64,000 bases of DNA, taken from positions 538,616 to 602,615 of the forward strand of contig OZ245843.1 of assembly GCA_965228875.1 (NCBI GenBank), read 5' to 3'. A program made the translations under genes and the position numbers. The DNA is from Thalassobaculaceae bacterium. Lineage in GTDB: Bacteria > Pseudomonadota > Alphaproteobacteria > Thalassobaculales > Thalassobaculaceae. Under the pieces are notes generated by a model that worked only from the letters and a program-made list of their open reading frames with translations, searched no databases and had not been told where the DNA came from. Positions 23,456 through 38,760 of this stretch are shown in pieces (the first letter of the stretch is position 1; each line of letters starts with the position of its first letter).

Positions 23456-23458
23456 GCG

Positions 23459-24403: not shown

Positions 24404-24404
24404 G

Positions 24405-25685
24405 ATGTTCAATATCGTCGTGAAGGGCGGCACCCTACCGGACGGTCGGGTCGCCGATATCGGGATCCGCGACGGCCGCATCGTGGCGATGGAGCGGCTG
24501 GACGACGGCGTCGAGGCCGGGGAGGTGATCGACGCCGCGGGCGACCTGGTCAGTCCGCCGTTCGTCGACCCGCACTTCCACATGGACGCCACGCTGAGCT
24601 ACGGCCTGCCGCGGATCAACGCGTCGGGCACCCTGCTGGAGGGCATCGCGCTCTGGGGCGAGCTGAAACAGATGATGACCGTCGACGAGGTCAAGGAGCG
24701 CGCGCTCGCCTACTGCGACTGGGCGGCCAGTCTCGGCCTCCTGGCGATCCGCAGCCACGTCGATACGTGCGACGACCGGCTGCTCGGGGTCGAGGCGCTG
24801 CTCGACGTGCGCGAGGCAGTTAAGGGCTACATCAACCTGCAGCTCGTCGCCTTCCCCCAGGACGGGCTGTACCGCGACCCGACCGCCTATGCGAACACGG
24901 TCCGTGCTCTGGACATGGGCGTCGACGTGGTCGGCGGCATTCCGCATTTCGAGCGGACCATGGCCGACGGGGCCGCGTCCGTGACGGCACTCTGCGAGAT
25001 TGCCGCCGAACGCGGCCTGATGGTCGACATGCATTGCGACGAGACCGACGATCCGATGTCGCGCCATATCGAGATGCTGGCCTACGAGACCCAGCGGCTC
25101 GGTCTGCAGGGACGGGTGGCCGGCTCGCACCTGACCTCCATGCATTCCATGGACAACTACTACGTCTCCAAACTGCTGCCGCTGATGGCAGAGGCGCAGG
25201 TGGCCGCGATCCCCAACCCGCTGATCAACATCATGCTGCAGGGGCGTCACGACACCTTCCCGAAGCGCCGGGGCCTCACCCGGGTGAAGGAGATGCAGGC
25301 GCTCGGCATCACCGTCGGCTGGGGCCAGGACTGCGTGCGCGACCCGTGGTACTCGCTCGGCACCGGAGACATGCTGGACGTCGCCTTCATGGGCCTGCAC
25401 GTGGCGCAGATGAGCGCGCCGGAGGAGATGGCGCGCTGCTTCGACATGGTCACCACCGAAAGCGCGAGGATCATGAACCTCGACGGCTACGGTCTTGAGA
25501 TCGGGTCGGTCGCGTCGCTGGTTGTGCTGGATGCGGGCGACAGGACAGAGGCGGTGCGGCTGCGGCCGGCGCGGCTCTGCGTGATCGCCAAGGGGAAGGT
25601 CATCTCCCGCCAGGCCCGCAACGACGCAACGCTGTCCCTTCCCGGTCGTCCGGCGACGGTGCGGCGGCGACACCGGGCCGGGTGA
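24405..25685 (+). CDS. Cytosine deaminase-like amidohydrolase
   Basis: The sequence GDLVSPPFVDPHFHMDATL carries the HxH metal motif in the CodA context. Further blocks are VDMHCDETDD and GQDCVRDPWY. The gene is the last in the BMP-ABC operon. Confidence 0.8.
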   Translation: MFNIVVKGGTLPDGRVADIGIRDGRIVAMERLDDGVEAGEVIDAAGDLVSPPFVDPHFHMDATLSYGLPRINASGTLLEGIALWGELKQMMTVDEVKERALAYCDWAASLGLLAIRSHVDTCDDRLLGVEALLDVREAVKGYINLQLVAFPQDGLYRDPTAYANTVRALDMGVDVVGGIPHFERTMADGAASVTALCEIAAERGLMVDMHCDETDDPMSRHIEMLAYETQRLGLQGRVAGSHLTSMHSMDNYYVSKLLPLMAEAQVAAIPNPLINIMLQGRHDTFPKRRGLTRVKEMQALGITVGWGQDCVRDPWYSLGTGDMLDVAFMGLHVAQMSAPEEMARCFDMVTTESARIMNLDGYGLEIGSVASLVVLDAGDRTEAVRLRPARLCVIAKGKVISRQARNDATLSLPGRPATVRRRHRAG

Positions 25686-25742: not shown

Positions 25743-26435
25743 TCAGGACGGGGCCGGTGTGGTCGGCGACAGGAACAGGGGGCCCGTAAGACCTTCCTTC
25801 GCGGCCGCCGCGAGGGCGGCCGGTCGCTCCTGCAGGCGGGTCAGCATCGCCACCACGTGCGGGAAGCGCTCGAGATCGGCGCGGGCGAGAACCGGATCGT
25901 CCGTTGCGTAGATCTGGGCCCAGCGCAGGCAGGCGGCGAGGTAGTAGTCGCAGACGCTGATCGCCTCGCCCAGGATCCACAAGCGTCCGTCGGCGAGCAG
26001 ATCGTCGTAGATTGCGACGCTCTCCAGGGTCTCGCGACCGCTCCATCGGGCCACGCCGGCCGATACCGTCGGCTCCTCTGAAACCCGGTCGGCGTAGAAC
26101 CCGAGGCGCAGGTAGGCATGCACCGTGTTGGACAGGTGAAACAGCCGGCGCAAATACTCTCCGCGACCGGCGGAATCCCCCGGACCGGGGCCGAGGCGCC
26201 CGTGCTTGTCCGTGAGGTAGAGCAGGATGGCCGCCGTTTCGGCGATCGGGATTTCCGTGTCGCGGTCGATCAGCACCGGCAGCAGGCCCGTCGGGTTCAG
26301 TCTGTGAAAGGCCGCGTCGCGCCCGGTCCGGCGGGACGGGACCAGATGGTCGTCGTAGTCGGCGCCGAGTTCCTCCAACGCGAACCGGATGACGAGGTTG
26401 GCGCTGTCGGGGCTGTAGAACAGGGTGTAGGACAT
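25743..26435 (-). CDS. Glutathione S-transferase family protein
   Basis: The thioredoxin-like N-domain is MSYTLFYSPDSANLVIRFALEELG...NPTGLLPVLIDRDTEIPIAETAAILLYL, followed by a helical C-domain. Confidence 0.8.
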   Translation of the reverse strand: MSYTLFYSPDSANLVIRFALEELGADYDDHLVPSRRTGRDAAFHRLNPTGLLPVLIDRDTEIPIAETAAILLYLTDKHGRLGPGPGDSAGRGEYLRRLFHLSNTVHAYLRLGFYADRVSEEPTVSAGVARWSGRETLESVAIYDDLLADGRLWILGEAISVCDYYLAACLRWAQIYATDDPVLARADLERFPHVVAMLTRLQERPAALAAAAKEGLTGPLFLSPTTPAPS

Positions 26436-26496: not shown

Positions 26497-27111
26497 CTAT
26501 CTCTCGAACGACGTCGCGATTGCCGAGGGCCGAGCGCGCAGTCGTTGCCACCACTCGGTCACGCGGGGGTGCTCGTCCAGCATCCGCTTCCCGGTCTCGC
26601 ACATGGCGAACAGGTCGAGTGTCGGCAGGAAGTGGGTGTCGCCCAGCGTGAACGTCTCGCCCGCGACCCAAGGACCGTTCCCCAGCCAGAGTTCCAATTC
26701 CCGCAGGACCGTCCGCGACTGCGCGACCGCCTTGTCATGGGGCAGGCATCCGTCCTCACCGCGGACCTCCGAGATGAAGACGCTCCACACCATCGCCGGA
26801 TAGGCGTAGCTGTCCATCACTCGCATCGCCTGGGCGGCACGGGCCAGCGCCGCCGGATCCGACGGCAGCAGTGGCGGCTGCGGATACTTCGCCTCGAGAT
26901 AGCGCTGAATCGCGTCGCTCTCGTACAGCCGGACATCGCCGTCCTCGAAGGCGGGGATCCTGCCGAAGGGGTGGAGCTCCCGGTAGGTGTCCGGGAGTCC
27001 CTGTTCGGCGAAGGGGTCGACCTCCACAAGCTCGTAGTCCAGGCCCTTCTCGTGCAGGCAGAGCCGCACGCAGCGGACGTAGACGCTGAACGGCCGGCCG
27101 TAGAGCCTCAT
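26497..27111 (-). CDS. Glutathione S-transferase family protein
   Basis: The sequence MRLYGRPFSVYVRCVRLCLHEKGLDYELVEVDP...HPFGRIPAFEDGDVRLYESDAIQRYL is GST-like. Confidence 0.85.
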   Translation of the reverse strand: MRLYGRPFSVYVRCVRLCLHEKGLDYELVEVDPFAEQGLPDTYRELHPFGRIPAFEDGDVRLYESDAIQRYLEAKYPQPPLLPSDPAALARAAQAMRVMDSYAYPAMVWSVFISEVRGEDGCLPHDKAVAQSRTVLRELELWLGNGPWVAGETFTLGDTHFLPTLDLFAMCETGKRMLDEHPRVTEWWQRLRARPSAIATSFER

Positions 27112-27121
27112 GGTTCCCCCT

Positions 27122-27157
27122 CCGGCGCCTTAACCGGCGCCTTAACCGGCGCCTCAG
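27122..27157 (-). repeat. 12-bp tandem repeat (about 2.75 units) spanning the ECH stop codon and the ECH-GST spacer
   Basis: The plus strand reads CCGGCGCCTTAA CCGGCGCCTTAA CCGGCGCCTCAG. The minus strand reads TGA GGCGCCGGTTAA GGCGCCGGTTAA GGCGCCGGAGGGGGAACC ATG. Confidence 0.9.
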
Positions 27158-27951
27158 CGACCGGTGAAGGCCGGCTTGCGCTTTTCCATGAACGCCTTAC
27201 GGCCCTCGGCGTAATCGGCGCTGTTGAAGCAGCGGTCGACCATGGCCTGGATGCCCGCCGCGTCTATGTCGCCGCGGGTCTTCACCAGCTCGTCGATGGT
27301 GAACTTGGAGGCCTCCATCGACAGCGGTGCGTTCACGGCCGTCTCGGCGCAGAATTCCGACACGGTGGACTCCAGGGCGTCCGGGGCCACGACCTGATTG
27401 ATCAGGCCCATGGCGAGAGCCTGCTCCGCCGGATAGCGCCGGCCGGTGAACAGGATCTCCTTGGCGCGTGACGGCCCGACCAGACTGACGAGGCGCATCA
27501 GGTTCATGGTGTCGTAGGCGATGCCCAGGCGCGCCGCCGGAATGCCGAAGACCGATCCCTCAGCGGCGATCCGCAGATCGGCGGTCATGGCGATGCCGAG
27601 GCCGCCGCCCATGCAGAAGCCTCGGATCATGGCGATGACCGGCTTGCGGAAGCCGATGATGGTCTGTCGCGCGTCCCGCGAGATCTGGGCGTAACGCTCG
27701 GCGGCGTCGGCGTCGGCGCGGTTCTTGTCGAACTGCGAGATGTCGGCCCCGGCGGTGAAGGCCTTGTCGCCGGCGCCGGTCATCACGACAGAGCGCACGT
27801 CGTCGGCGGCATCGAAGGCGTCGAAGGCCTTCTGGATGCCCTCCCACATCTCGAGCGAGATGGCGTTGCGCCGCTCCGGCTGGTTGATGGTCAGCCAGCC
27901 GGTCGCGTCGCGGATTTCGGCCAGGATCTTCTCGGTTCCGGTGTCGACCAT
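27154..27951 (-). CDS. Enoyl-CoA hydratase/isomerase (crotonase) family protein
   Basis: The sequence LTINQPERRNAISLEMWEGI...VVMTGAGDKAFTAGADISQF...CMGGGLGIAMTADLRIA shows the crotonase oxyanion-hole blocks. Confidence 0.9.
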   Translation of the reverse strand: MVDTGTEKILAEIRDATGWLTINQPERRNAISLEMWEGIQKAFDAFDAADDVRSVVMTGAGDKAFTAGADISQFDKNRADADAAERYAQISRDARQTIIGFRKPVIAMIRGFCMGGGLGIAMTADLRIAAEGSVFGIPAARLGIAYDTMNLMRLVSLVGPSRAKEILFTGRRYPAEQALAMGLINQVVAPDALESTVSEFCAETAVNAPLSMEASKFTIDELVKTRGDIDAAGIQAMVDRCFNSADYAEGRKAFMEKRKPAFTGR

Positions 27952-28042
27952 GTCGGTCTCCTTCAGGTGGTGCCGCCGCCGGGAATGCGGCCGGGAGCGG
28001 ATTGTATACCAGGGGAGGAGGGGGGAGCGGACCCCGGAAAAC

Positions 28043-28924
28043 TCACCCGGCGACCGCGATCACGTCGACCGACTGCGATGTCTCCTGCGACCCCGCCGTG
28101 CGGAGCGCGCCCTTGACCGGAGCGACATCGAAGTAGTCACGGCCGACCGCGACCACGACGTGGTCCTCTCCGGCGGTCATGTTGTTGGTCGGATCGAACT
28201 CGACCCAGCCCATCTCCACGCCGCACCAGGCGCGGACCCAGGCGTGCATGGCGTCGGCCCCCTCGAGCCGGGCGCTGCCCTTCGGCGGGATCGTGCGCAG
28301 GAAGCCGCTCACGTAGCCGGCCGGGATACCGATGCTGCGCAGCGCCGCGATGGCTATATGGGTGAAGTCCTGGCAGACGCCGTGGCGGGCGCGGAACGCC
28401 TCCTCCAGTGGCGTGTCGACGGCCGTCGCCTCGGGATCGAAGGCCATCTCCTCGTGGAGCGCGCCGCAGATCCTCGACACCGCGTCCAGTGCGCTCGGGC
28501 TGCCGGCGGTCACGGCACGGGTCCAGGCGGCGATCTCCGCCGACGGCGGAATCCGGGGGGAGGGTGCGCGGAAGTGATGCGGCGCATCGGGCGCAAGCGA
28601 GGCGATGCCGTCGAGCTCCTCCTGCAAACGCGCGAGGGACGGCGAGACGTCGAACAGCGGGTCCAGCGGGCTGCGATCGACCCGGGCCCGCATCAGGAAG
28701 GCGGTTTCCTCGACCGCTCCGTCGTAGGTGATGCCGACGCACCGGTTGCCGAAGAAGTCCGTCATCTGGGTCCGTTCGAACGGGGCCGGGGCGACGTCGA
28801 GGCTGGTGGCGACGACCCGCTGCTGGCCGGCGAGGCTGATGGGCATCAGCCGCAGCAGGTGGCGTCCGGCATCGGCCAGGCTCTCGTAGGTGTATTCGAT
28901 GCGAAGCGTGATGTCGTACAGCAT
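28043..28924 (-). CDS. Transglutaminase-family protein (Bact_transglu_N plus transglutaminase core), 293 aa
   Basis: The translation begins MLYDITLRIEYTYES. The Cys-His-Asp triad context is GVCQDFTHIAIAALRSIGIPAGYVSGF, DAMHAWVRAW and WVEFDPTN. Confidence 0.9.
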   Translation of the reverse strand: MLYDITLRIEYTYESLADAGRHLLRLMPISLAGQQRVVATSLDVAPAPFERTQMTDFFGNRCVGITYDGAVEETAFLMRARVDRSPLDPLFDVSPSLARLQEELDGIASLAPDAPHHFRAPSPRIPPSAEIAAWTRAVTAGSPSALDAVSRICGALHEEMAFDPEATAVDTPLEEAFRARHGVCQDFTHIAIAALRSIGIPAGYVSGFLRTIPPKGSARLEGADAMHAWVRAWCGVEMGWVEFDPTNNMTAGEDHVVVAVGRDYFDVAPVKGALRTAGSQETSQSVDVIAVAG

Positions 28925-28958
28925 GGCCGGTCTCCGGAGCCCGGTGGACGCTAGAACA

Positions 28959-29063
28959 AATCACGACAAGATGGAAACTTCTGGTCGTGTGAATTTGCTC
29001 TTTCAGTATGGGTTTGCAGGGCGACTTACGCTTCAGATCGGTTCGATCCGAAGCGACCGCGCT
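28959..29063 (+). repeat. Intergenic structured repeat, copy B (core plus second module)
   Basis: The core is AATCACGACAAGATGGAAACTTCTGGTCGTGTGAATTTGCTCTTTCAGTATGGGTTTGCAGGGC, followed by the second-module hairpin CTTCAGATC-GGTTC-GATCCGAAG. It lies between two minus-strand operon genes. Confidence 0.8.
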
Positions 29064-31466
29064 CTATCGCAGATAGGTTTCGGCCAGAAGTCCGCTGAGA
29101 GCGGCCGCGTCGTCGGCCATCGCCGCCAGTCGGGCCGGCGTCATCTCGCTGGCCGACGCGGTGGTGAGCGTCGTCCGCATCTCCAGGACCCGGCGCTGAA
29201 ACGGAGTCATCCGCACCTCCTCCACCGTTACCGGCAGGTAGGAGGCGTGCGCGTCGAGCGCCTCGAGCTGATGCAGAACCGAGCGCGGATTCATGTCGTC
29301 GAGCATCAGCAGGTCGATCACCGTCTCACGGCTCATGCCGGCGGCGTAGCGGCGGCGATGGGTCATCACGGAATCGCCGACCTCGATGGCGAGGTCGAGC
29401 GCGCCGTCCGGCGCCTCGGCGTCGGTGAAGACCTGCAGGAAGGCGATCATCGCGGCGGTCCGCTCCACCGCCCGGCCGATCCCGAGGAACCGCCATCCGG
29501 TGAACCTGTACATGTTCTCGTGCACCAGACCGGAGAAGCCGGCGATCTTGCGCAACAGCACGCTGAACGCGCGGGAAGCGTCATCGCCGGGCTGCACCCG
29601 CTCCTGGAACATCTCGGTGGTGCGCGTCAGATCGACCAGGGCGTTCCAGGCGTCGGTCGAGAACCGGTCGCGGACCTGTCCAGAGCTGCGCAGCGCCGAG
29701 CGCAGGTCCTCAAGAAGGCCGTCGGGAACAGGCGCCATGGCGTCGAGGCCGAAGACCGCGAGGTACTCCGACAGCATGTCGGCCAGGGGATATTCGCCGC
29801 CCCCGGTCTCGGCCAGACGCACATGGTAGGCGCGCAGCAGGCGGATCTTGAAGTCCGCGCGCTCGACGTAGCGGCCGAGCCAGAAGAGGTTGTCCGCCGC
29901 CGTGCTCGGCAGGGTGACGTCCTGGGCACGCCGAGGGCCGGCGCCGTTGCTCTGCAGCAGGGTGTCCACCGGTCCGGCGGCGTCCGAAACCACCCAGACG
30001 TCGCTGACCGCGCCGCCGCGCTGCATCGAGATGTCGGCGCTCTCCGCCGAGTGTCCGATCCGCGCGAAGCCGCCGGGCATGACGACCCAGCCGTCGCGGG
30101 TGCGGGCGACGAACACGCGCAGGCTCATCGGCCGCGCCACCAGTTTGCCGTCGACCAGTGCCGGCGCGGTCGACAGGGACACCACCTCCTGCGCCGCGAG
30201 ACCGGAGCCCTCGGCGTCGATCCAGTCTGGATCGGCGGGCTTCCCGTCCTGCCGAATGCCGCCGATCACCGCGTTGGGGCCGTGGTCGAACGGCAGCCGC
30301 GTGGACATCGCGCTGTCGATGGTCATGCGGGCGAGGTTTTCCTTGACGTAGGCGCGTTCCTGCGCGCCGCCGCACCACCAGGTCGCGATGTTGGCCATGG
30401 CCAGCGGACGGTCGGTCAGGTACTCGCAGATCCGCGGCATGAAGGCCATCAGCGCGCGGATCTCGATCGCGCCGGAGCCGACGGCGTTGACCATCGTGAA
30501 CGAACCGGAGCGCAGCGCGCCAAGCATGCCCGGCGTGCCGAGCTGGGACGTCTCGTTGAGTTCCAGCGGGTCGGTCCAGTCGGAGTCGAGCCGGCGCCAG
30601 ACCACCGAGATCGGCTTCAGGCCGCTGACCGTACGCACCATCAACCGGTTCTCGCGCACCGCGAGGTCGGCGCCGCGCACGAGCATGAAGCCGAGGTATC
30701 GGGCGATGTAGGAGTGCTCGAAATAGGTGTCGTTGAGGGGCCCCGGTGTGAGGATCGCCACCCGGCTGCCGTCGTTCTCGCGCAGATCCAGCAGCGTGTC
30801 GCGGAACCGCCGGAAGAATCCCGCCAGCCGCTGGACCTTGGCGTTGCTGACCATGGTCGAGAAGCTGCGCGAGGTGGCCATCCGGGTCTCGAGCGCGAAC
30901 CCGGCGCCCGACGGCGCCTGGGTCCGGTCGCCCAGCACCCACCACTTGCCGTCCGGACCGCGGCCGATGTCGAAGGCGAGGAAATGCAGGTAGTGGCCGT
31001 TCCTGGGCTGGACGCCGACCATGGGGCGCAGCCATTCCGGATTGGCGGCCAGCAGCCGCGCCGGGACGACACCGTCGGCGACCAGCCGGTTGGGGCCGTA
31101 GATGTCGGCCATCACCGCCTCGAGCACGTCCGCGCGCTGGGTCAGCGCCGTCGCGATCCCGTCCCATTCCCGTGCCTCGAGCAGCACCGGCAGGTGGCTG
31201 AGGGGCCAGTCGCGCTCGGTCGAGGCGTCGGGCCCGTAGTGGCGGAAGAAGACACCGGCATCGCGCAGGTACTGATTGCCGCGGGCCAGGGCGTGGTCCA
31301 GTTCCTCCGCGTCCATCGCCGCCAGATCGCGCAGGAACGGCTGCCAGACCGGGCGTACGTTGCCGTCGCCGTCGAACAGTTCGTCCGCCACGCCCGGCAG
31401 CGTGCGGTAGGTGTCCAGGAGGCTGCTCCAGTCCGGTTCGTCGGCAGCCTGTCGGGCCTCGCTCAT
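29064..31466 (-). CDS. Circularly permuted ATP-grasp (type 2) protein fused to an alpha-E domain, 800 aa
   Basis: The N-terminal part contains ...ANIATWWCGGAQERAYV..., typical of cpATP-grasp. The C-terminal part contains STAADNLFWLGRYVERADFKIRLLR, the alpha-E signature. The ATG lies 1 nt after the stop of the upstream gene. Confidence 0.88.
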   Translation of the reverse strand: MSEARQAADEPDWSSLLDTYRTLPGVADELFDGDGNVRPVWQPFLRDLAAMDAEELDHALARGNQYLRDAGVFFRHYGPDASTERDWPLSHLPVLLEAREWDGIATALTQRADVLEAVMADIYGPNRLVADGVVPARLLAANPEWLRPMVGVQPRNGHYLHFLAFDIGRGPDGKWWVLGDRTQAPSGAGFALETRMATSRSFSTMVSNAKVQRLAGFFRRFRDTLLDLRENDGSRVAILTPGPLNDTYFEHSYIARYLGFMLVRGADLAVRENRLMVRTVSGLKPISVVWRRLDSDWTDPLELNETSQLGTPGMLGALRSGSFTMVNAVGSGAIEIRALMAFMPRICEYLTDRPLAMANIATWWCGGAQERAYVKENLARMTIDSAMSTRLPFDHGPNAVIGGIRQDGKPADPDWIDAEGSGLAAQEVVSLSTAPALVDGKLVARPMSLRVFVARTRDGWVVMPGGFARIGHSAESADISMQRGGAVSDVWVVSDAAGPVDTLLQSNGAGPRRAQDVTLPSTAADNLFWLGRYVERADFKIRLLRAYHVRLAETGGGEYPLADMLSEYLAVFGLDAMAPVPDGLLEDLRSALRSSGQVRDRFSTDAWNALVDLTRTTEMFQERVQPGDDASRAFSVLLRKIAGFSGLVHENMYRFTGWRFLGIGRAVERTAAMIAFLQVFTDAEAPDGALDLAIEVGDSVMTHRRRYAAGMSRETVIDLLMLDDMNPRSVLHQLEALDAHASYLPVTVEEVRMTPFQRRVLEMRTTLTTASASEMTPARLAAMADDAAALSGLLAETYLR

Positions 31467-31467
31467 G

Positions 31468-34400
31468 TCAGATTCCGGCCGGGCGTCTGAGGTCGAGGGT
31501 CATGGGGAACTCGGGGTGCGGGGTCTCCGGCCCCGGTGCGTAGGCGCCGGGCGTGTGGCCATGGTACTCGAACCTGGCCAGCCGACGCGCCTCCGCCTCG
31601 TTGGCGTTGACCGGAAACGTCTCGTAGTTGCGCCCGCCGGGATGCGCCACATGGTAGACGCAGCCGCCGAGGGGGCGGCCCGACCAGGTGTCGAAGATGT
31701 CGAACGTCAGGGGCGCGTGCACGTCGATCACCGGATGCAGCGCCATTGCCGGGCGCCACGCCTTGAAGCGCACGCCACCGACCGACACGCCGCTCGATCC
31801 GCCATCGGCGAGCGGCATCCGACGTCGGTTGCAGGTGACGACATAGCGGTCGGGGTCGGGGGCGGTGAGCTTGACCTGAAGGCGTTCGGTCGAGCTGTCG
31901 GTGTAGCGGGCGGTGCCGCCGATGGCCCCGGTCTCGCCAAGCACGTGCCACGGCTCCAGAGCCTGGCGCAGTTCGAGATGCACGCCCTCGTATTCCACCT
32001 CGCCGCAGAACGGGAAGCGAAACTCCGCCTGGGCCTCGTACCACTCGGAACGGAAGTCGAAGCCGTGCTGCCGGAGGTCCCGCAGGACGTCCAGGAAGTC
32101 GCTCCACACGAAGTGCGGCAGCATGAACCGGTCGAGCAGGGTCGTGCCCCAGCGCGTGAAGTTGCCGCCGACCGGCACCTTCCAGAACCGGGCGATCAGG
32201 GCGCGGAGCAGAAGCTGCTGGGCCAGGCTCATCCGCGGGTCCGGCGGCATCTCGAAGCCGCGGAACTCGACCAGACCGAGCCGTCCGGTCGGGCCGTCCG
32301 GCGAATACAGCTTGTCGATGCAGATCTCGGCCCGGTGGGTGTTGCCGGTGACGTCGGTCAGCAGGTTGCGCAGCAGCCGGTCGACCAGCCACGGCAGCGG
32401 GGGCGTCCCCTGGTCCGGGTGCGGGATCTGGCTGAGCGCGATCTCCAGTTCGTAGAGGCTGTCATGCCGGGCGTCGTCGACCCGCGGTGCCTGGCTTGTC
32501 GGACCGATGAACAGGCCGGAGAACAGGTGTGACAGGCTGGGATGGCGCTGCCAGTGCAGGATGATCGAGCGCAGCACGTCCGGGCGCCGCAGGAACGGAC
32601 TGTCGGCGGGCGTGGCGCCGCCGACGACCACGTGGTTGCCGCCTCCCGTGCCCGTATGCTTGCCGTCGATCATGAACTTGTCGGCGCCGAGACGGGACTG
32701 CCGCGCCTCCTCGTAGACCGCCTCGGTGATCGCCACGCAGTCGCGCCAGCTCGACGCCGGGTGGATGTTCACCTCGATCACGCCGGGATCCGGGGCGACG
32801 CGGATCACGTTCAGCCGTGGATCGGTCGGCGGCGCGTACCCTTCGATGTGAACCTTCACGCCCAGCCCGGCGGCCGCCCGCTCCACCGCGTCCAGCAGTT
32901 CGAGGTAGTCGTCCGCCCGCTCGACCGGCGGCATGAAGACGCAGAGCCGGCCGTCCCTCGGCTCGACCGCCAGCGCGGTGCGCACGGCCCCGCCGATCTC
33001 CCCGATATGCTGTTCGATAACGGTCTGGACATGCCCCGACGGCGTGAAGCGGGCGCGGGCCTGATCCGGGTCGGTCTCGGCGTCGTCATCCGACCGGGGC
33101 TCCGCGAATTCCGGCAGCGGGCCACGCTCCTCCCAGGGGTCGGCGATGTTCACGTAGGGATACTGAGACGGCGGCACGTAGGGCAGGGCGCCCAGGGGCA
33201 GTCGATAGCCGGCCGGACTGTCGCCGGGGACCAGAAAGACGTGACCGCGCCGGGGCCGCCAGAGCTCCGAGCGCCAGCGCCGGGATTCCCGCGCCTGCGA
33301 CTGCCAGCGCTGGACCGGGAGCACATAGCTGGCGGGTTCGGTCAGACCGCGATTGAACACGCGGGCGATGCGGTGACGCTCCTCGGCATCGCGCAGCTTC
33401 GAGTTCTCCGGCGTCACGTTCTCGGGCAGGTTGGCTTCCTTGAGCAGCCATTCCGCCGGATCCTCGTAGGCGGGGACGACGTTTCCCTGGTCGACCTCGA
33501 GATTGTCGGCGATGGCCCGGAGCAGCGCCTCCGCCTCTTTCTGGCCGGCGTGGAGACGCTCGGTCTCGCCGGCGATCAGGTCGGCGTTGCGCCAGACCGG
33601 CTTGCCGTCGCGCCGCCAGTACAGCGAGAACGTCCAGCGCGGCAGCGTCTCGCCCGGATACCACTTGCCCTGACCGTAGTGCAGGAAGCCGCCGGGCGCG
33701 AAACGCGTGCGCAGCCGGCGGATCAGCACATCCGCGAGTCCCCGCTTCATCGGGCCGACGGCGGCGGTGTTCCACTCGGGCGACTCGAAGTCGTCGATCG
33801 AGACGAAGGTCGGCTCGCCGCCCATGGTCAGGCGGACGTCGGCATCGGCCAGATCCCGGTCGACCCGCTCGCCGAGGGCGTCGAGCGCCTGCCAGGACTC
33901 CTCGGAGAACGGCTTGGTGATCCGTGGGTGCTCGGCGACGCGCTCGACGGTCATGTCGAAGGAGAAATCGACCTCGGCGGCGGTGGCGACGCCCGAGATC
34001 GGTGCGGCGTTGCGGTAGTGCGGGCAGGCGGACAGCGGGATGTGGCTCTCGCCCGTCAGGAGGCCCGAGGTCGGATCGAGGCCGATCCAGCCGGCGCCGG
34101 GCAGGTAGACCTCGGCCCAGGCGTGCAGGTCGGTGAAGTCGTGATCCGTGCCGGCGGGACCGTCCAGCGCCACCAGGTCCGGCTTGAGCTGGATGAGGTA
34201 GCCGGAAACGAAGCGGGCGGCGAAGCCGAGATGGCGCAGGATCTGGACGATCAGCCAGCTCGAGTCCCGGCACGAGCCGCTCGCCAGTTCCAGCGTTTCC
34301 TCGGGCGTCTGCACACCCGGTTCCATGCGGATCAGGTACTTGATCTCCTGCGACACCCGGTGATTCAGGTCGACGACGAAGTCGACGGTCCGTTTCGGCG

Positions 34401-34815
34401 TCCGGTCGATCCCGTCGAGAAACGCCTGGACGCGCGGTCCCGCCGGTTCTGGCGTGCGGTAGATCGACAGGTCGTCCCGCAGTTCTGCGGGATAGTCGAA
34501 CGGCCACTCCTCGGCGGATTCCTCGACGAAGAAATCGAACGGGTTGTACACCGTCATGTCGGCGACCAGATCGACCTCGATCTTCAACTCGGTCACCGGC
34601 TCCGGAAAGACGAAGCGCGACTGCCAGTTGCCGTAGGGGTCCTGCTGGTGGTTCACGAAGTGGCCGGCAGGCGACACCTTCAGGGAGTGCGAAACCACGC
34701 GGGTCCGGCTGTACGGCGCCGGGCGCAGGCGGATGACCTGGGGGCCGAGGGTGACCGGCCGGTCGTAGCGGTAATGCGTCAGGTGATGGATCGCAGCCTT
34801 GATCGACATGGGCAT
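31468..34815 (-). CDS. Giant transglutaminase-family protein (Bact_transglu_N + transglutaminase core + DUF2126-type putative amidoligase region), about 1115 aa
   Basis: The N-terminus is [21 protein letters not shown]. The triad context is [36 protein letters not shown] and GLDPTSG. A long C-terminal region is typical of this family. An alternative start is the second ATG at 34807-34809. Confidence 0.88.
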
Positions 34816-35002
34816 CCAACTGGTTGCAGCGTCCGGAAATCGAGTTTCCCTTTATATCCCAAGGCGCAAAGGGATGGCGAGGCCGTGGTCGTCGTTGCCG
34901 GGCCGGCCGAAGATTTCTGGCGGCATCCATTGCTGCCGCATCTGAGAATTGTATAGTGGTGCCAGTTCAAAAGCACACCATCCACAAAAAGAGGAAACCT
35001 CC

Positions 35003-36187
35003 ATGAAACGCTTGCTACCGTTGCTCTGCGCGGCGGTGTTCTCCACCGCGGCGCATGCTCAGGACGAGGTTAAGGTCGGCATGCTCCAGGGCTTCACCGG
35101 GCCGACCGAGTCGCTGGTCAAGCCGATGGCGCTCGGCGGCGAACTGGCGATCCAGGAAATCTCCGACAGCGGTCTGTTCCTTGGCGGCAAGAAGGTCGTC
35201 TCCGTTCGCGGTGACAGCACCTGCATCGATGCCGCCGCGGCGACCGCTGCCGCGGATCGCCTGATCACGTCCGAAGGCGTTGTCGGCATCGTCGGCGCGA
35301 CCTGCTCTGGCGCCACCACCGCCGTCCTCAACAACGTCGTGCGGCCGAACGGCATCGTCATGATCTCGCCGTCGGCCACCTCGCCGGCGCTGAGCACCAT
35401 CGAGGATGATGGTCTGTTCTTCCGCTCCGCGCCTTCCGACGCGCGTCAGGGCGAGGTGATCGGCGCGATCCTGTCCGGCAAGGGCATCAAGTCCGCCGCG
35501 CTGACCTACACCAACAACGACTACGGCAAGGGCCTGGCCGACGCGATTCAGGCGGCGTTCGAGGCCAATGGCGGCACGATCACCGCCGTGGCCGCGCACG
35601 AGGACGGCAAGGCCGACTACTCGGCCGAAGTCGCGACCCTGGCCTCCGCCGGCGGCGACATCCTGATCGTGGCCGGCTACCTCGACCAGGGCGGCAAGGG
35701 CATGATCCAGGCCGCGCTCGATACCGGAGCGTTCGACACGTTCATGCTGCCGGACGGCATGGTCGGCGAGGCGCTGACCGACAATTTCGGCGCCGATCTG
35801 GACGGTTCCATCGGCACCAACCCCGGTACCGACAGCCCGGGTGCCTCCATGCTGGCCAAGCTCGCCGAGGGCAAGGGCTTCAAGGGCGATGACCCCTATG
35901 TTCCGGAAGCCTATGACGCGGCCGCCGTCCTGCTGCTCGCCATGCAGTCCGCCGGCAGCACCGACAGCGCGACCTACAAGAGCCATGTCGAGAAGGTCGC
36001 CAACGCCCCGGGCGAGAAGATCTACCCGGGCGAGTTGGCCAAGGCGTTGAAGATTCTCGCCGACGGTGGCGACATCGACTACGTCGGCGGCACCGCGCTC
36101 GAGCTGATCGGCCCGGGCGAGTCGGCCGGCAGCTTCCGCGAGACCACCGTCGAGGGCGGTGCGTGGAAGACCGTCGCCTACCACTGA
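35003..36187 (+). CDS. Branched-chain amino-acid (Leu/Ile/Val-type) ABC transporter substrate-binding protein
   Basis: ATG at 35003 follows AGAGGAAAC. The signal peptide is MKRLLPLLCAAVFSTAAHA. The periplasmic-binding-protein type 1 pattern is VKVGMLQGFTGP...GVVGIVGATCSGAT. Confidence 0.88.
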   Translation: MKRLLPLLCAAVFSTAAHAQDEVKVGMLQGFTGPTESLVKPMALGGELAIQEISDSGLFLGGKKVVSVRGDSTCIDAAAATAAADRLITSEGVVGIVGATCSGATTAVLNNVVRPNGIVMISPSATSPALSTIEDDGLFFRSAPSDARQGEVIGAILSGKGIKSAALTYTNNDYGKGLADAIQAAFEANGGTITAVAAHEDGKADYSAEVATLASAGGDILIVAGYLDQGGKGMIQAALDTGAFDTFMLPDGMVGEALTDNFGADLDGSIGTNPGTDSPGASMLAKLAEGKGFKGDDPYVPEAYDAAAVLLLAMQSAGSTDSATYKSHVEKVANAPGEKIYPGELAKALKILADGGDIDYVGGTALELIGPGESAGSFRETTVEGGAWKTVAYH

Positions 36188-36212
36188 CCGTCTGACGGTC
36201 CGACAGATACGA

Positions 36213-36245
36213 GGGAACGGTCAGGCCAGCGCCTGACCGTTTCCC
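36213..36245 (+). terminator. Strong hairpin between the SBP and ATPase genes (attenuator or mRNA-stabilising element)
   Basis: GGGAACGGTCAGGC-CAGC-GCCTGACCGTTTCCC forms a 14-bp stem with one bulged T. There is no clear U-tract. Confidence 0.4.
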
Positions 36246-36262
36246 GCATTCAGGTTCGTTCG

Positions 36263-37045
36263 ATGATCAGAGTTGAAAACGTCACCAAGAACTTTGGTGG
36301 CATTCGCGCGGTCGACGGGGTCTCGCTCGAGATCGCGCAGGGATCGATTACCGGGCTGATCGGCCCGAACGGTGCCGGCAAGACCACACTGTTCAACATT
36401 ATCGCCGGTCACTTTCCGCCGTCGTCGGGGTCTATCCACCTCGACGGTGAGGACGTGACCGATTTGGAGCCGCACGAGCTGTTCCACAAGGGCCTGCTGC
36501 GCACCTTCCAGATCGCCCACGAGTTCTCCAGCCTGACCGTGCTGGAGAACCTGATGATGGTTCCGGGCGATCAGCCGGGCGAGAACCTGCGTCACTCCTG
36601 GTTCAATTTCCGCCGGGTGATGGAGGTCGAGGCCAAGGTCCGCGACCGGGCCCGCGAGGTGATCGAGTTTCTGGAGATCGAGCACGTCGCCGACGAACTG
36701 GCCGGCAACCTCTCCGGCGGTCAGAAGAAGCTTCTAGAGCTCGGGCGTACCATGATGGTGGACGCCAAGATCGTGTTCCTGGACGAGGTCGGCGCCGGCG
36801 TGAACCGCACGCTGCTTCAGACCATCGCGCGGTCGATCCGGCGCCTGAACGAGGAACGGGGCTACACCTTCTGTCTGATCGAGCACGACATGGATTTCAT
36901 CGCCCGGCTCTGCGATCCGGTGATCGTCATGGCCGAGGGCCGGCTGCTGACCCAGGGGACGGTCGACGCGGTGATGAACAACGAGGACGTCATCGAGGCC
37001 TATCTCGGCACCGGGCGTAAGCACAAACGGGTGTCAGAGGCATGA
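36263..37045 (+). CDS. Branched-chain amino-acid ABC transporter ATP-binding protein (LivG-like)
   Basis: Walker A is GPNGAGKTT and the signature is LSGGQKKLLELGR. The C-terminus has the LivG-type ending DVIEAYLG. Confidence 0.9.
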   Translation: MIRVENVTKNFGGIRAVDGVSLEIAQGSITGLIGPNGAGKTTLFNIIAGHFPPSSGSIHLDGEDVTDLEPHELFHKGLLRTFQIAHEFSSLTVLENLMMVPGDQPGENLRHSWFNFRRVMEVEAKVRDRAREVIEFLEIEHVADELAGNLSGGQKKLLELGRTMMVDAKIVFLDEVGAGVNRTLLQTIARSIRRLNEERGYTFCLIEHDMDFIARLCDPVIVMAEGRLLTQGTVDAVMNNEDVIEAYLGTGRKHKRVSEA

Positions 37046-37746
37046 GCTTCCTCTCTGCAACCGGCATGACCGGCGGATATGGCGGCGTCGATATCATCAC
37101 CGACTGCGATCTGAAGGTGGAACGCGGCGAGATCGCCGTGGTCGTCGGTCCCAACGGCGCCGGCAAGTCGACGGCGATGAAGGCGGTGTTCGGCATGCTG
37201 AACCTGCGCCAGGGCAGCGTGGTGTTCGACGGCGACGACATCACCGCGCTGGCGCCGCAGGAGCGGGTGCGCCATGGCATGGGATTCGTGCCGCAGAACC
37301 GCAACGTCTTCGTCTCGCTGAGCGTCGAGGAGAACCTGGAAATGGGCGCCTTCATCCGGGAGGACGACATCTCCGGAACCAAGGAGCAGGTGTTCGACCT
37401 GTTTCCGATCCTGGCGGAGAAGCGGTCCCAGCCGGCGGGAGAGCTGTCCGGGGGCCAGCGCCAGCAGGTGGCGGTCGGGCGGGCGCTGATGACCCAGCCG
37501 CGCCTGCTCATGCTGGACGAGCCGACCGCCGGCGTGTCGCCGATCGTCATGGACGAACTGTTCGACCGCATCGTCGAGATCGCCAAGACCGGCATCGCCA
37601 TCCTGATGGTCGAGCAGAACGCCCGTCAGGCTCTGGAGATCGCCGATCACGGTTTCGTCCTTGTCCAGGGCACAAACCGCTTCACCGATACCGGCGAGGC
37701 GCTGCTGGCGAACGACGAAGTCCGCCGATCGTTCCTGGGGGGCTGA
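37042..37746 (+). CDS. Branched-chain amino-acid ABC transporter ATP-binding protein (LivF-like)
   Basis: Walker A is GPNGAGKST and the signature is LSGGQRQQVAVGRAL. It overlaps the previous gene by 4 nt. Confidence 0.9.
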   Translation: MSFLSATGMTGGYGGVDIITDCDLKVERGEIAVVVGPNGAGKSTAMKAVFGMLNLRQGSVVFDGDDITALAPQERVRHGMGFVPQNRNVFVSLSVEENLEMGAFIREDDISGTKEQVFDLFPILAEKRSQPAGELSGGQRQQVAVGRALMTQPRLLMLDEPTAGVSPIVMDELFDRIVEIAKTGIAILMVEQNARQALEIADHGFVLVQGTNRFTDTGEALLANDEVRRSFLGG

Positions 37747-37749
37747 GGG

Positions 37750-38760
37750 ATGGACGTGCTCAACGCCTTCGCGCTGCTCGCGAATTTCGTCATCGTCCCG
37801 GCGACGGCCTATGGTGCTCAGCTCGCGCTGGGTGCGCTCGGGGTGACGATCATCTTCGGCATCCTGCGCTTCGCCAACTTCTCCCACGGCGAGCTGATGT
37901 CCTTCGGCGCCATGGTGACGATCCTGGTCACCTGGCTGCTGCAGATGAACGGGATCGGCATCGCGCCGCTGCCGACGGCGCTGCTGGCGCTGCCGGTCGG
38001 GATCCTCGCGACGGTCGCCATGGCGGCGCTGACCGACCGCTACGTCTTCCGGTTCTACAGGAAGAAGCGCGCCAACCCGATCGTCTTCGCCATCGTCTCG
38101 GTCGGCGTGATGTTCGTCATGGCCGGGCTGATCCGCATCATCATCGGCCCGGACGATCACAGCTTCGCCGACGGCGCGCGGTTTCTGATATCGGTGCGCG
38201 ATTTCAAGAACGCGACCGGCATGGAGCAGGGCATCGCGATCAAACAGACCCAGGTCGTCACCGTCGTGGTCGCCCTCATCGTCGTCGCCTACCTGTTCTG
38301 GTTCCTGCAGAAGACCCGGTCCGGCAAGGCCATGCGAGCGTATTCCGACGACGAGGATCTGGCCCTGCTGTCCGGCATCAACCCGGAGCGGGTGGTGCTG
38401 ATCGCGTGGATCATCGCCGGCTCGCTCGCCTGCATCGCGGGGACGCTGTATGGCCTCGACAAGACCTACAAGCCGTTCATCTTCCTCCAGATCCTCCTGC
38501 CGATCTTCGCCGCGACGATCCTCGGCGGCATCGGCCAGCCGGTCGGCGCCGTGCTCGGCGGCTTCATCGTCGCCTTCTCCGAGGTGACGGTGACCTACGC
38601 CTTCAAGCGGTTCCTGGCCTATCTCGGGCCGGAGGGGTGGGTTCCCGAGGGGCTCGTTCAGCTGCTGTCCACCGACTACAAGTTCGCGGTCTCCTTCGTC
38701 ATTCTGGTCGTCGTGCTGCTGGTCCGGCCGACCGGCATCATCCGGGGTAAAGTGATATGA
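37750..38760 (+). CDS. Branched-chain amino-acid ABC transporter permease (LivH-like)
   Basis: A polytopic 336-aa protein containing ...NFSHGELMSFGAM... and MRAYSDDEDLALLSGINP, both typical of LivH. Confidence 0.88.
   Translation: MDVLNAFALLANFVIVPATAYGAQLALGALGVTIIFGILRFANFSHGELMSFGAMVTILVTWLLQMNGIGIAPLPTALLALPVGILATVAMAALTDRYVFRFYRKKRANPIVFAIVSVGVMFVMAGLIRIIIGPDDHSFADGARFLISVRDFKNATGMEQGIAIKQTQVVTVVVALIVVAYLFWFLQKTRSGKAMRAYSDDEDLALLSGINPERVVLIAWIIAGSLACIAGTLYGLDKTYKPFIFLQILLPIFAATILGGIGQPVGAVLGGFIVAFSEVTVTYAFKRFLAYLGPEGWVPEGLVQLLSTDYKFAVSFVILVVVLLVRPTGIIRGKVI

Follow-up and report, generated by a model that had tools for sequence, protein, structure and literature searches.

The three-gene operon on the minus strand of a 64,000-nucleotide stretch of Thalassobaculaceae bacterium contig OZ245843.1 (the whole stretch is referred to as the window) is an ordinary member of the widespread Rv2566/Rv2567/Rv2569c-type module and not a new kind of system. 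The initial annotation had proposed an undescribed system, which stands as far as experiments are concerned and falls otherwise, since the module has been catalogued, is very common and is represented here by a typical copy. Our preferred reading, to which we give an even chance, is that of a cytoplasmic, self-contained module that would both form and cleave amide bonds, of the peptide or isopeptide type, in a conserved substrate resembling a peptide, within the nitrogen economy. What is shown comprises the domain identities, the intact and invariant catalytic residues, the coupling of the operon and the fact that dead paralogues have lost a set of residues together.

The three genes and their domains, as listed in the initial annotation, were recovered exactly using profile HMMs (Pfam), and every domain call passed (Table 1). 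The DNA is 68% GC and carries long shadow ORFs on the other strand; the coding frames were settled by conserved synteny, the Pfam scores and over 8000 full-length homologues. The true start of gene 1 is probably at 34809 (MSIK..., 1113 aa), as favoured by database protein P0001, which is 100% identical and counts 1113 aa. According to the ORF coordinates, genes 1 and 2 are separated by 1 nt and genes 2 and 3 by 139 nt.

Table 1. Operon features, with positions numbered from the first letter of the window.
Feature	Position	Strand	Details
Gene 1, large protein	31468..34815	(-)	1115 aa from first ATG; ORF + Pfam
Bact_transglu_N (PF08379), large protein aa 8-85	34561..34794	(-)	Pfam E 1e-27
Transglut_core (PF01841), large protein aa 132-248	34072..34422	(-)	Pfam E 1e-17
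DUF2126 (PF09899), large protein aa 279-1110	31486..33981	(-)	Pfam E=0, 1323 bits
Gene 2, middle protein	29064..31466	(-)	800 aa; ORF + Pfam
CP_ATPgrasp_2, middle protein aa 93-470	30057..31190	(-)	Pfam 2.7e-126
Alpha-E (PF04168), middle protein aa 519-799	29070..29912	(-)	Pfam 8.3e-52; all-helical
Gene 3, small protein	28043..28924	(-)	293 aa; ORF + Pfam
Small-protein domains: Bact_transglu_N aa 3-82; Transglut_core aa 133-245			Pfam; Transglut_core 1.8e-20
Gene 2-3 spacer	28925..29063	(-)	139 nt, two predicted hairpins
Putative sigma-70-type promoter CTCGCC-N17-GATATA	34853..34881	(-)	upstream of gene 1; inferred

Both triads described in the initial annotation are intact (GSCRD, HAWAEVY and GLDPTSG in the large protein; GVCQD, HAWVRAW and FDPTN in the small protein). 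The triad of the large protein, Cys180/His229/Asp245 in MSIK numbering, is invariant in 80/80 three-gene-type sequences, and its transglutaminase core was matched by Foldseek to 3isr (3e-12) and to TgpA 6g49. The small protein, a stand-alone transglutaminase-fold protein, is paralogous to the first 275 residues encoded by gene 1 (26% identity to the N-terminus of the large protein); its sequence matches in the PDB were 6g49 and 3isr, and its triad (Cys184/His227/Asp244) is invariant in 61/61 sequences.

Judged by identity to homologues of several orders, mostly alphaproteobacterial (76-82%), conservation of the large protein is unusually high. Ten residues of DUF2126 were selected as candidate metal, ATP or acyl-phosphate residues (E332, E679, N681, H683, H726, R826, E828, E848, R850 and E853), nine of which are invariant in all 80 sequences, the exception being H683 (H in 63, Q in 17). 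The family call of DUF2126 was confirmed by Pfam, while the glutamine synthetase (GS)-like amidoligase nature given by the initial annotation, which goes back to the Pfam description and a proposal of Iyer et al. 2008 (PMC2588565), found no independent support here. Foldseek yielded weak matches only (Dop 7oy3, E 0.3; GlnA 8v1y, E 0.5), the AF2 model of the large protein was mediocre (pLDDT 65.9), hhalign of DUF2126 against a GS gave no match, and neither sequence nor profile comparison with the PafA/Dop/GS superfamily was significant. The pattern of Glu/His/Arg motifs is reminiscent of GS; if Dop-like, the fold could be an amidase instead of a ligase.

In six-gene variants of the cluster, a second copy of the large protein is present besides the first. 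This second copy lacks the transglutaminase Cys as well as E332, E679, N681, H683, H726, E848 and R850, all of which are kept in the first. The joint loss of the Cys and seven ligase candidates indicates where the active site probably lies and suggests that the activities are coupled; it also hints at oligomers, and the large protein probably acts as one.

In the middle protein, ATP-grasp and alpha-E are fused in 65/65 related loci carrying the gene, and a confident AF2 model was obtained (pLDDT 86.8, pTM 0.83). The ATP-grasp half matched PDB 3n6x by sequence (2.8e-67) and by Foldseek (6e-28, TM 0.83), followed in Foldseek by glutathione and homoglutathione synthetases (1e-11 to 1e-8), the E-64 ligase Cp1B (2e-6) and YgiC/YjfC (3-6e-6). 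For the ATP-grasp protein of the Yersinia Anbu operon, release of phosphate from ATP has been reported (PMC6376114). The alpha-E half carries the ER motif GRYVERAD, with R532, Y533 and R536 invariant; no PDB fold match was obtained for it by Foldseek, all matches outside ATP-grasp relatives having E>0.27.

Of 73 related genomes whose flanking sequence was long enough, 64 keep the order large-middle-small; the median gaps are 6 and -4 nt, a 4-nt overlap being usual, and Ralstonia has the identical gene order. Synteny among related loci thus bears out the tight coupling noted in the initial annotation, the three genes being a conserved, translationally coupled unit. At the other 9/73 loci the large gene has neither partner close by, and the full module may therefore be optional. 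The neighbourhood survey that had been suggested, Anbu variants included, did not place Anbu among the neighbours: no Anbu gene was found in or adjoining the window operon or at 80 related loci. Nor was any further conserved neighbour (transporter, pathway enzyme) found among related loci. The Liv importer reported beside the operon is indeed divergent from it (Peripla_BP_6, then LivG/F/H/M-type ABC genes); as a conserved neighbour it did not hold, being lineage-specific, and it says nothing general on function. The 139-nt spacer is particular to this genome, relatives having a gap of 8-12 nt or a 4-nt overlap; its RNA fold was predicted at -57.2 kcal/mol (z -3.64), and no second copy was found within the window. 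The putative promoter block is kept in the window and in T. salexigens L086 and L088; a generic scan for a consensus promoter upstream gave none.

Induction under nitrogen limitation is known only from the work of others or from other lineages. In B. cenocepacia, the cluster that includes the large protein is NtrC/σ54-dependent and induced by nitrogen limitation; expression of I35_5080-83 fell 6- to 9-fold when ntrC was mutated (PMC5491218). The related Anbu operon was the most induced one in nitrogen-limited P. putida (PMC3235984). A σ54 promoter, TGGCAYAAGTCTTGCG, was found at -53/-54 in 7/7 Pseudomonas-type loci (background 0.025 per 200 nt), with the variant TGGCACAACTCTTGCC in the Pseudomonas-type locus L075. 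Neither a σ54 promoter nor a recognisable NtrC site was found in the window's lineage, so that the nitrogen link is an extrapolation from what is seen in beta- and gammaproteobacteria.

Following the preferred reading, the ATP-grasp half would convert a carboxylate to an acyl-phosphate and then join it to an amine, chemistry that is proposed because its nearest characterised structural relatives (glutathione/homoglutathione synthetase, YgiC/YjfC, Cp1B) do likewise; the fused alpha-E domain might hold the substrate or a partner protein. A second ATP-dependent carboxylate-amine (or carboxylate-ammonia) ligation would be carried out in a Glu/His/Arg-rich site of DUF2126, with the large protein working as an oligomer. 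Of the two transglutaminase-fold domains with a Cys-His-Asp triad, one is fused to the DUF2126 ligase candidate and the other is free; both would hydrolyse or transfer amides via a thioester, so that each ligase would have its own amidase partner, as is the case in glutathionylspermidine synthetase/amidase (Gss). Substrate, flux direction and physiological role are the parts that we infer. A cytoplasmic location fits the proteins having no N-terminal signal-like sequence by eye, and a link to peptides is provided by the Peptidase_Mx gene that adjoins some of the related loci (see below). This reading is weakened in that neither the mediocre model nor the weak Dop and GlnA matches confirmed the GS-like fold of DUF2126, and in that the present evidence fits a small-molecule as well as a protein substrate. 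Furthermore, no orthologous system with a defined substrate, product or role, nor a phenotype of orthologues, was found in the full-text literature, in agreement with the initial annotation; according to a 2024 paper, ML2678, the orthologue in M. leprae, has been the subject of no experimental study (PMC11597610). The proposal from comparative genomics that is mentioned in that annotation is to be found in Iyer, Burroughs & Aravind 2008 (PMC2588565), who defined the family combining transglutaminase with a DUF2126 'carboxylate-amine ligase', and in Iyer et al. 2009 as cited in PMC6376114.

Protein tagging, the proposal of Iyer et al., is a possible but doubtful alternative, in which the ligases would add an amino acid or a short peptide to carboxylates on the side chains or at the C-terminus of a target protein and the transglutaminase-fold enzymes would remove or trim this tag, steering turnover during starvation; it is likened to pupylation or RimK/TTL-type glutamylation, without a dedicated tag gene. 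Transglutaminase-fold enzymes typically target protein glutamine residues, the proteasome-like Anbu replaces the large protein in the sister operon (PMC6376114, PMC3235984), a Peptidase_Mx zinc metallopeptidase gene directly adjoins the module in 11/80 loci of several orders, a weak Proteasome-family gene lies near the six-gene cluster L085, the weak fold match of DUF2126 is the depupylase Dop, and the dead paralogues suggest a big scaffolded assembly. These observations are countered by the absence of a conserved small ORF in or beside the operon, whose genes overlap or abut (likewise Iyer 2008, PMC2588565), by the characterised structural relatives of the ATP-grasp half, which all use small molecules or short peptides, and by the Yersinia Anbu operon proteins, for which no stable complexes and no peptidase activity were found (PMC6376114). 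A small-molecule substrate would be used if the module builds up and breaks down a conjugate of the glutathione, gamma-glutamyl or polyamine type that serves to scavenge or store nitrogen or to buffer the redox state, similarly to Gss or the PuuA/PuuD gamma-glutamylation pathway, an explanation that we likewise regard as possible but doubtful. Gss is a precedent, pairing a ligase with a papain-fold thiol amidase; the very high conservation of the large protein fits a universal metabolite substrate, as does membership of a nitrogen-limitation regulon a small-molecule role, and in the window's lineage the operon is followed by a pair of GST genes, although GSTs are missing from all 80 other loci. 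The ATP-grasp half resembles glutathione/homoglutathione synthetases and the peptide-spermidine ligases YgiC/YjfC (PMC12568646), but YgiC had no glutathionylspermidine synthase activity (Sui 2012, as far as cited in PMC12506659), so a likeness of fold among these ligases does not tell which substrate is used. Small-molecule amides are further disfavoured by the lack of a conserved transporter or further pathway enzyme, by the peptidase association, which suits peptides better, and by an Rv2567 lysate that made no GABA-trehalose (bioRxiv 10.64898/2026.04.15.718621), a narrow negative.

It is very improbable that gene 3 encodes a secreted virulence protease like M. tuberculosis Rv2569c and that the operon serves host interaction. 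Rv2569c has been reported as a protease, the recombinant protein degrading casein and cleaving E-cadherin and the deletion mutant having a translocation phenotype, but its inhibition by PMSF and AEBSF and not by E-64 or NEM, despite the Cys-His-Asp fold, leaves the invariant Cys (61/61) unexplained (PMC11081392). Moreover, the module is present almost unchanged in thousands of bacteria, including free-living marine and soil bacteria, and no N-terminal signal-like sequence was seen by eye in any of the three proteins, gene 3 included. Rv2569c is only a presumed orthologue of gene 3. ATP-grasp ligases and papain-like peptidases are generally known in both anti-phage defence and strain-specific secondary-metabolite (RiPP-like) clusters; that the operon belongs to either is hardly credible, as PADLOC gave no match, a precursor peptide ORF was not found in or beside the operon, identities of 56-82% and a fixed order across classes are core-gene-like rather than island-like, and the window composition is without marked anomaly.

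Among known systems, the closest solved structures are JCSG 3n6x (Methylobacillus Mfla_0391) for the ATP-grasp half and JCSG 3isr (Cytophaga hutchinsonii putative cysteine protease) for the transglutaminase domains, both structural-genomics entries without functional data. With Gss/YgiC/YjfC, the eukaryotic-type glutathione and homoglutathione synthetases and Cp1B (Foldseek 1e-11 to 6e-6), the ATP-grasp half shares the fold and, as proposed, the chemistry from ATP via acyl-phosphate to joined carboxylate and amine, at only 9-14% identity in structural alignments; the amidase is a separate transglutaminase-fold protein in the module and CHAP in Gss, and the alpha-E fusion has no counterpart there. 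Likeness to PafA/Dop (pupylation) and the GS superfamily is a proposal (Pfam, Iyer 2008) accompanied by the weak Dop/GlnA fold matches; DUF2126 has twice the length and is joined to a transglutaminase domain, and the module has neither a Pup-like gene nor a proteasome. The Anbu operon (CP ATP-grasp, alpha-E, transglutaminase, Anbu proteasome-like subunit), the function of which is undefined despite Anbu crystal structures (PMC6376114, PMC5666114, PMC3235984), has grasp, alpha-E and transglutaminase in common with the window module, which carries the DUF2126 protein in place of Anbu. B. cenocepacia I35_5080-5083 (BCAM1233-1236) is the only case with regulatory data (PMC5491218). Its order is grasp, alpha-E, transglutaminase and large protein, the first two being encoded separately, whereas the window operon has large, fused grasp-alpha-E and transglutaminase, without a σ54 promoter. 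The mycobacterial Rv2566/Rv2567/Rv2569c-type module (M. tuberculosis; ML2678 in M. leprae) has the same large-protein architecture, a transglutaminase-like N-terminus followed by DUF2126, and the same partner families, a CP ATP-grasp/alpha-E protein and a small protein of transglutaminase fold. A one-to-one correspondence with the mycobacterial genes, and the order of the latter, are presumed from the literature; the window copy is of the alphaproteobacterial type.

The initial annotation had placed a three-gene operon with products of 1115, 800 and 293 aa on the minus strand, and this was borne out by the ORF listing (table below). Its domain calls all passed a check against Pfam profile HMMs, and the transglutaminase motifs quoted for the large (gene 1) and small (gene 3) proteins were all found in the sequences. 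In the large protein, Bact_transglu_N (PF08379, aa 8-85) and Transglut_core (PF01841, aa 132-248) are followed by DUF2126 (PF09899, aa 279-1110; E = 0, 1323 bits). The middle protein (gene 2) carries CP_ATPgrasp_2 (PF14403, aa 93-470; 2.7e-126) and, on the same chain, Alpha-E (PF04168, aa 519-799; 8.3e-52), and the small protein is a stand-alone Bact_transglu_N and Transglut_core protein with Cys-His-Asp. The module consists of three genes encoding two ATP-dependent ligase-type and two intact thiol amidase/transamidase-type domains. The small protein is 26% identical to residues 1-275 of the large protein and, judged by sequence, the two are paralogues. None of the three proteins matched an NCBIfam model. 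Inspection by eye revealed no signal-like N-terminus in any of them, which points to a cytoplasmic module.

Long antisense shadow ORFs abound in the window DNA (68% GC); the coding frames were nevertheless settled by the HMM scores and the thousands of homologues. Since the database copy of gene 1 (P0001, 100% identity) has 1113 aa, translation probably begins at the second ATG (34809), and residues of the large protein are numbered accordingly. Genes 1 and 2 are separated by 1 nt and genes 2 and 3 by 139 nt.

Coordinates of features in the window and in related loci (L numbers, fetched loci)
Feature	Sequence	Position	Strand	Remark
Gene 1, large protein, 1115 aa	window	31468-34815	-	ORF listing
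Gene 2, middle protein, 800 aa	window	29064-31466	-	ORF listing
Gene 3, small protein, 293 aa	window	28043-28924	-	ORF listing
Gene 2/gene 3 spacer	window	28925-29063		139 nt
Enoyl-CoA hydratase (ECH)	window	27154-27951	-	same strand as operon
GST, first	window	26497-27111	-	same strand as operon
GST, second	window	25743-26435	-	same strand as operon
First ABC uptake set	window	22448-25685
BPD_transp_2 permease	window	23459-24403		in first ABC uptake set
Amidohydro_3 gene	window	24405-25685		after BPD_transp_2 permease
Peripla_BP_6/LivGFHM-type ABC uptake set	window	35004-40055		divergent from operon
TGGCACCACTATACAA, rejected as σ54 site	window	~34940-34955
Six-gene cluster	L082	3625-10087
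Six-gene cluster	L085	4753-11255
Six-gene cluster	L084	14-5754
Peptidase_Mx gene	L014	13331-14473
Peptidase_Mx gene	L029	15467-16579
Peptidase_Mx gene	L032, L038, L042, L049, L050, L060, L063, L072, L074
Large gene in two pieces, then IS110-family transposase	L028	13068-14423
Glutamine synthetase-type gene	L016	7652-9238	-	Rhizobium lemnae
σ54 promoter TGGCAYAAGTCTTGCG	L067, L069, L075-L078, L080	~9950		L075, variant TGGCACAACTCTTGCC
CTTGCTTTC-N~10-GCATTGCACAAA block	L011, L015, L016, L020, L021, L022, L026
No ATP-grasp/alpha-E or small gene within 10 kb	L007, L013, L014, L033, L035, L052, L056, L066

More than 8000 full-length homologues of the large protein were retrieved by a word-indexed search, and an exhaustive phmmer search gave 12597 cluster representatives at E<1e-3 (2894 at E<1e-30). 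The protein is 76-82% identical to proteins of Rhizobiales, Rhodobacterales and Rhodospirillales, and also of the gammaproteobacterium Porticoccus. Gene neighbourhoods were surveyed in 80 loci fetched from species-representative genomes, 73 of which had sufficient downstream sequence. The operon is kept as a unit: large, middle and small genes follow each other in this order on the same strand in 64 of the 73 loci (88%), Ralstonia solanacearum megaplasmids have the same arrangement as the window, and the order is likewise kept in Thalassobaculum salexigens. Median intergenic distances across related loci are 6 and -4 nt, and the ATP-grasp and alpha-E domains share one chain wherever both are present (65/65). 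Measured against the window copy, the large protein has a median identity of 65-67% and the small protein one of 42%, while the two halves of the middle protein reach 47% (ATP-grasp) and 37% (alpha-E); strong purifying selection acts on the module. The operon had been put forward as an undescribed system. It is still uncharacterised, but the module has long been recognised and the window copy is an ordinary member of it, so that there is nothing surprising about the window itself.

The large gene stands alone in nine loci, in one of which it adjoins an IS110 transposase. Downstream of the solitary large genes listed in the table, unrelated genes were seen (aldo-keto reductase, GGDEF, HrpB helicase, MinCD); partners of such genes may lie elsewhere in the genome or be dispensable. 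The split large gene of L028 is likely a disrupted operon copy. Copies from Xanthomonadales and Porticoccus (L013, L025 and the database homologues P0075 and P0090) are 72-77% identical to the alphaproteobacterial type, whereas those of Pseudomonas reach only 56-59%, which suggests that, on top of the purifying selection, the whole module was horizontally transferred between classes.

The Cys-His-Asp triads are invariant in the large (80/80) as well as the small protein (61/61). Within DUF2126, E332 (GGEPTF), E679 and N681 (VIEVNIHP), H726 (GGGNHV), R826 and E828 (HRAEI) and E848, R850 and E853 (VEFRGFE) are invariant in 80/80 sequences, and position 683 is H in 63 and Q in 17 of the 80. The most distant full-length relatives of the large protein lack the transglutaminase Cys. 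In the contigs inspected, each such relative is encoded by the second gene of a tandem large-protein pair, within a six-gene cluster with the layout ATP-grasp, alpha-E, big1, big2, grasp–alpha-E, small transglutaminase. Every listed transglutaminase and DUF2126 residue is kept in big1; big2 has lost the Cys along with E332, E679, N681, H683, H726, E848 and R850, and retains fold-level similarity and the RAE motif. Because the Cys and seven candidate DUF2126 residues were lost at once, big2 is read by us as a natural pseudoenzyme partner. If this holds, the listed residues would belong to the active sites, the transglutaminase and DUF2126 activities, being lost together, would be coupled, and the large protein would work as an oligomer. 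By motif-level, alignment-free reasoning, the candidate residues may be equivalent to the metal, ATP and acyl-phosphate residues of glutamine synthetase (GS).

The structural model of the middle protein was confident (pLDDT 86.8, pTM 0.83). Using Foldseek, its ATP-grasp half was matched to 3n6x (E 6e-28, TM 0.83), named 'putative glutathionylspermidine synthase' by its depositors, to eukaryotic-type glutathione and homoglutathione synthetases (1e-11 to 1e-8), to the E-64 amide ligase Cp1B (2e-6) and to E. coli YgiC and YjfC (3-6e-6). These ATP-grasp relatives all join a carboxylate and an amine via an acyl-phosphate. YgiC and YjfC are reportedly peptide–spermidine ligases (Pederick 2023, as cited in PMC12568646). 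No PDB match to the alpha-E half was returned by Foldseek.

For the large protein, the AF2 model was moderate (pLDDT 65.9); its transglutaminase part matched 3isr and TgpA, and this domain dominated the whole-chain Foldseek search. Matches to the DUF2126 part were weak (depupylase Dop, E 0.3, prob 0.33; GlnA, E 0.5). Sequence and profile searches of the PDB returned transglutaminase relatives only, and hhalign comparison of the family alignment with a single GS, taken from L016, gave a probability of 0.3%. As our own comparisons gave weak or no match, the glutamine-synthetase-like nature of DUF2126 proposed in the initial annotation, which would place it in the carboxylate-amine ligase superfamily with GS, GCS2 and PafA/Dop, stands on the assignment by Pfam and by Iyer et al. 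2008 (PMC2588565) and on motif-level inference.

The locus is syntenic with T. salexigens GCA_000423805.1, where a divergent Liv-type ABC importer is followed by the large, middle and small genes and a GST; in a metagenomic relative, two GSTs follow the small gene. The divergent importer described earlier for the window was recovered as the Peripla_BP_6/LivGFHM-type set. The T. salexigens counterpart of the BPD_transp_2 set additionally has a Bmp-type binding protein. The two ABC uptake sets suggest that, in this lineage alone, the operon sits among genes for the uptake of nitrogen compounds. Clustering of all ORFs of the 80 related loci gave no conserved gene beyond the three. A general linkage of the module to GST was ruled out, since no GST homologue occurs in these 80 loci (0/80); GSTs follow the operon directly in T. 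salexigens and L088. The spacer between genes 2 and 3 is AT-richer and peculiar to the window genome; the closest relatives lack it, their genes being 8-12 nt apart or overlapping by 4 nt. Two hairpins, one of 12 bp and one of ~20 bp, form when the spacer is folded (z = -3.6), and it may represent an insertion or serve in regulation or processing within the operon.

A zinc metallopeptidase of the Peptidase_Mx family (PF15887) with a zinc ribbon directly adjoins the module in 11 of the 80 loci, on varying sides and strands, in Rhodobacterales, Hyphomicrobiales, Methylobacterium, Hyphomicrobium, Rhizomicrobium and Acidobacteriota. The window has no such gene. A weak Proteasome-family gene lies near one six-gene cluster. 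In Rhizobium lemnae, as a single case, the operon is preceded at a distance of ~400 nt by a glutamine synthetase-type gene in which both PROSITE GS signatures occur.

Nitrogen regulation of relatives has been reported. In B. cenocepacia H111, I35_5080-83 (DUF404/407, DUF403, a transglutaminase-like and a large transglutaminase-like protein) belong to the σ54/NtrC nitrogen-limitation regulon, their expression falling 6- to 9-fold when ntrC is mutated (PMC5491218). According to a note added in proof to PMC3235984, no operon was more strongly induced by nitrogen limitation in P. putida than the sister Anbu operon, which carries the proteasome-like Anbu. Upstream of the large gene, TGGCAYAAGTCTTGCG was found at -53/-54 from the start codon in 7/7 Pseudomonas-type loci, against a background of 0.025 such sites per 200 nt. 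GGTGC/GCAC-rich blocks lie further upstream in these loci and could be NtrC sites. Weaker -24/-12-like sites occur in several other loci. No σ54/NtrC site was found upstream of the window operon or of its alphaproteobacterial relatives, so the nitrogen link is extrapolated for the window genome; TGGCACCACTATACAA was rejected, the GC at -12 being missing.

Three Thalassobaculum-type genomes share a CTCGCC-N17-GATATA block; GCATTGC precedes the putative -10 in T. salexigens L086 and in L088, and the window has GCCTTGG there. A CTTGCTTTC-N~10-GCATTGCACAAA block lies 45-100 nt upstream of the large gene in Rhizobiaceae, and 7-mer enrichment over 75 upstream regions gave lineage-specific motifs only. 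No riboswitch or other RNA element reached the Rfam gathering score in the window, matches at E ≤ 1 in 27800-35300 were at chance level, and a generic promoter/terminator scan of the window was uninformative.

The literature on the module and its relatives yielded only comparative-genomics proposals and the data given below; no characterised orthologue with a defined product was found in the literature searched. The term 'DUF2126' was absent from the 8 million full texts searched, and nitrogen-starvation transcriptome papers on Agrobacterium and Paraburkholderia do not mention the operon. Anbu structures have been published together with negative activity and interaction data (PMC6376114, PMC5666114), and a Yersinia ATP-grasp protein was subjected to a phosphate-release assay (PMC6376114). 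Rv2567 tested negative as GABA-trehalose synthetase (bioRxiv 10.64898/2026.04.15.718621). Recombinant Rv2569c was reported as a PMSF-sensitive, E-64-insensitive protease (PMC11081392), which is hard to reconcile with the invariant Cys and the occurrence of the module in free-living bacteria. Papers on Rlo and a Shewanella 'inactive transglutaminase' were set aside as dealing with an unrelated membrane system.

With middling confidence, we propose that the module uses ATP to ligate amides on a conserved peptide-like substrate and removes them again, in a cycle tied to nitrogen economy. By analogy with glutathionylspermidine synthetase/amidase, either ligase would have a papain-fold amidase as its counterpart. 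The Peptidase_Mx and Proteasome-family associations point to peptides or proteins as input, and no conserved small ORF or tag gene was found in or beside the module in the 80 related loci. A protein, as in a tagging model, and a small conjugate, of the kind handled by several ATP-grasp relatives of the middle protein, are in our estimate equally likely as the substrate, each at clearly less than even odds.

It is improbable, in our estimate, that the large protein is a glutamine-dependent amidotransferase, or an amide-cycling machine, of a class not seen before. Its Cys-His-Asp domain would then act as a glutaminase/transamidase, taking an amide nitrogen or acyl group from protein- or peptide-bound glutamine for use at the DUF2126 ligase site, which would depend on ATP and belong to the same oligomer. 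The free transglutaminase and the ATP-grasp/alpha-E ligase would complete a reversible system, free of a tag gene, in which peptide or protein carboxylates are amidated or extended and the fate of their carriers is controlled when cells are starved of nitrogen. If the two domains form a coupled pair, joint loss of their active sites, as in the dead paralogues, is what would be expected.

Few bacterial enzyme systems without a known reaction are as widespread and as conserved as this module, and M. leprae has retained an orthologue despite its reduced genome. Solving it would assign a reaction to three domains (DUF2126, CP ATP-grasp type 2 and alpha-E), probably a role to the sister Anbu operon, and supply a missing piece of the bacterial nitrogen-limitation response. 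The window copy adds nothing unusual; its value is as a well-defined entry to a question open since 2008. Handles are the minimal three-gene unit, which is of the window type in the tractable hosts Agrobacterium fabrum, Sinorhizobium, Pseudomonas brassicacearum/fluorescens and Ralstonia solanacearum, the candidate catalytic residues, corroborated by dead paralogues that occur in nature, the Pseudomonas σ54 promoter and the recurrent metallopeptidase partner.

In the comparison with known systems, PADLOC returned no match to an anti-phage defence system for any of the three proteins. A Pup-like small gene with proteasome/Mpa neighbours was not found, related loci having no conserved small ORF or extra gene. 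The Anbu operon has separate genes, ordered ATP-grasp, alpha-E, transglutaminase, whereas the window operon begins with the DUF2126 gene and has ATP-grasp fused to alpha-E; no Anbu gene occurs among the window neighbours (ECH, two GSTs, amidohydrolase, ABC genes) or within 9 kb in T. salexigens, and the 80 loci have no extra conserved gene. Set against the GspS-type synthetase domain of the glutathionylspermidine synthetase/amidase (Gss) family, the middle protein shows fold-level likeness to YgiC/YjfC and 3n6x, and Pfam assigns it CP_ATPgrasp_2 and not GSP_synth. Gss carries an N-terminal CHAP amidase on the same chain, whereas the operon proteins have no CHAP, a C-terminal alpha-E and transglutaminase-fold amidase candidates. 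The closest likeness is to the Rv2566/Rv2567/Rv2569c-type module, which combines an N-terminal transglutaminase and DUF2126 on one chain, as does the large protein; adjacent CP ATP-grasp and alpha-E, fused in the middle protein; and a stand-alone Cys-His-Asp transglutaminase protein, with the same features as the small protein. Its neighbourhood is kept across distant bacteria, as is that of the window type in 64/73 loci.
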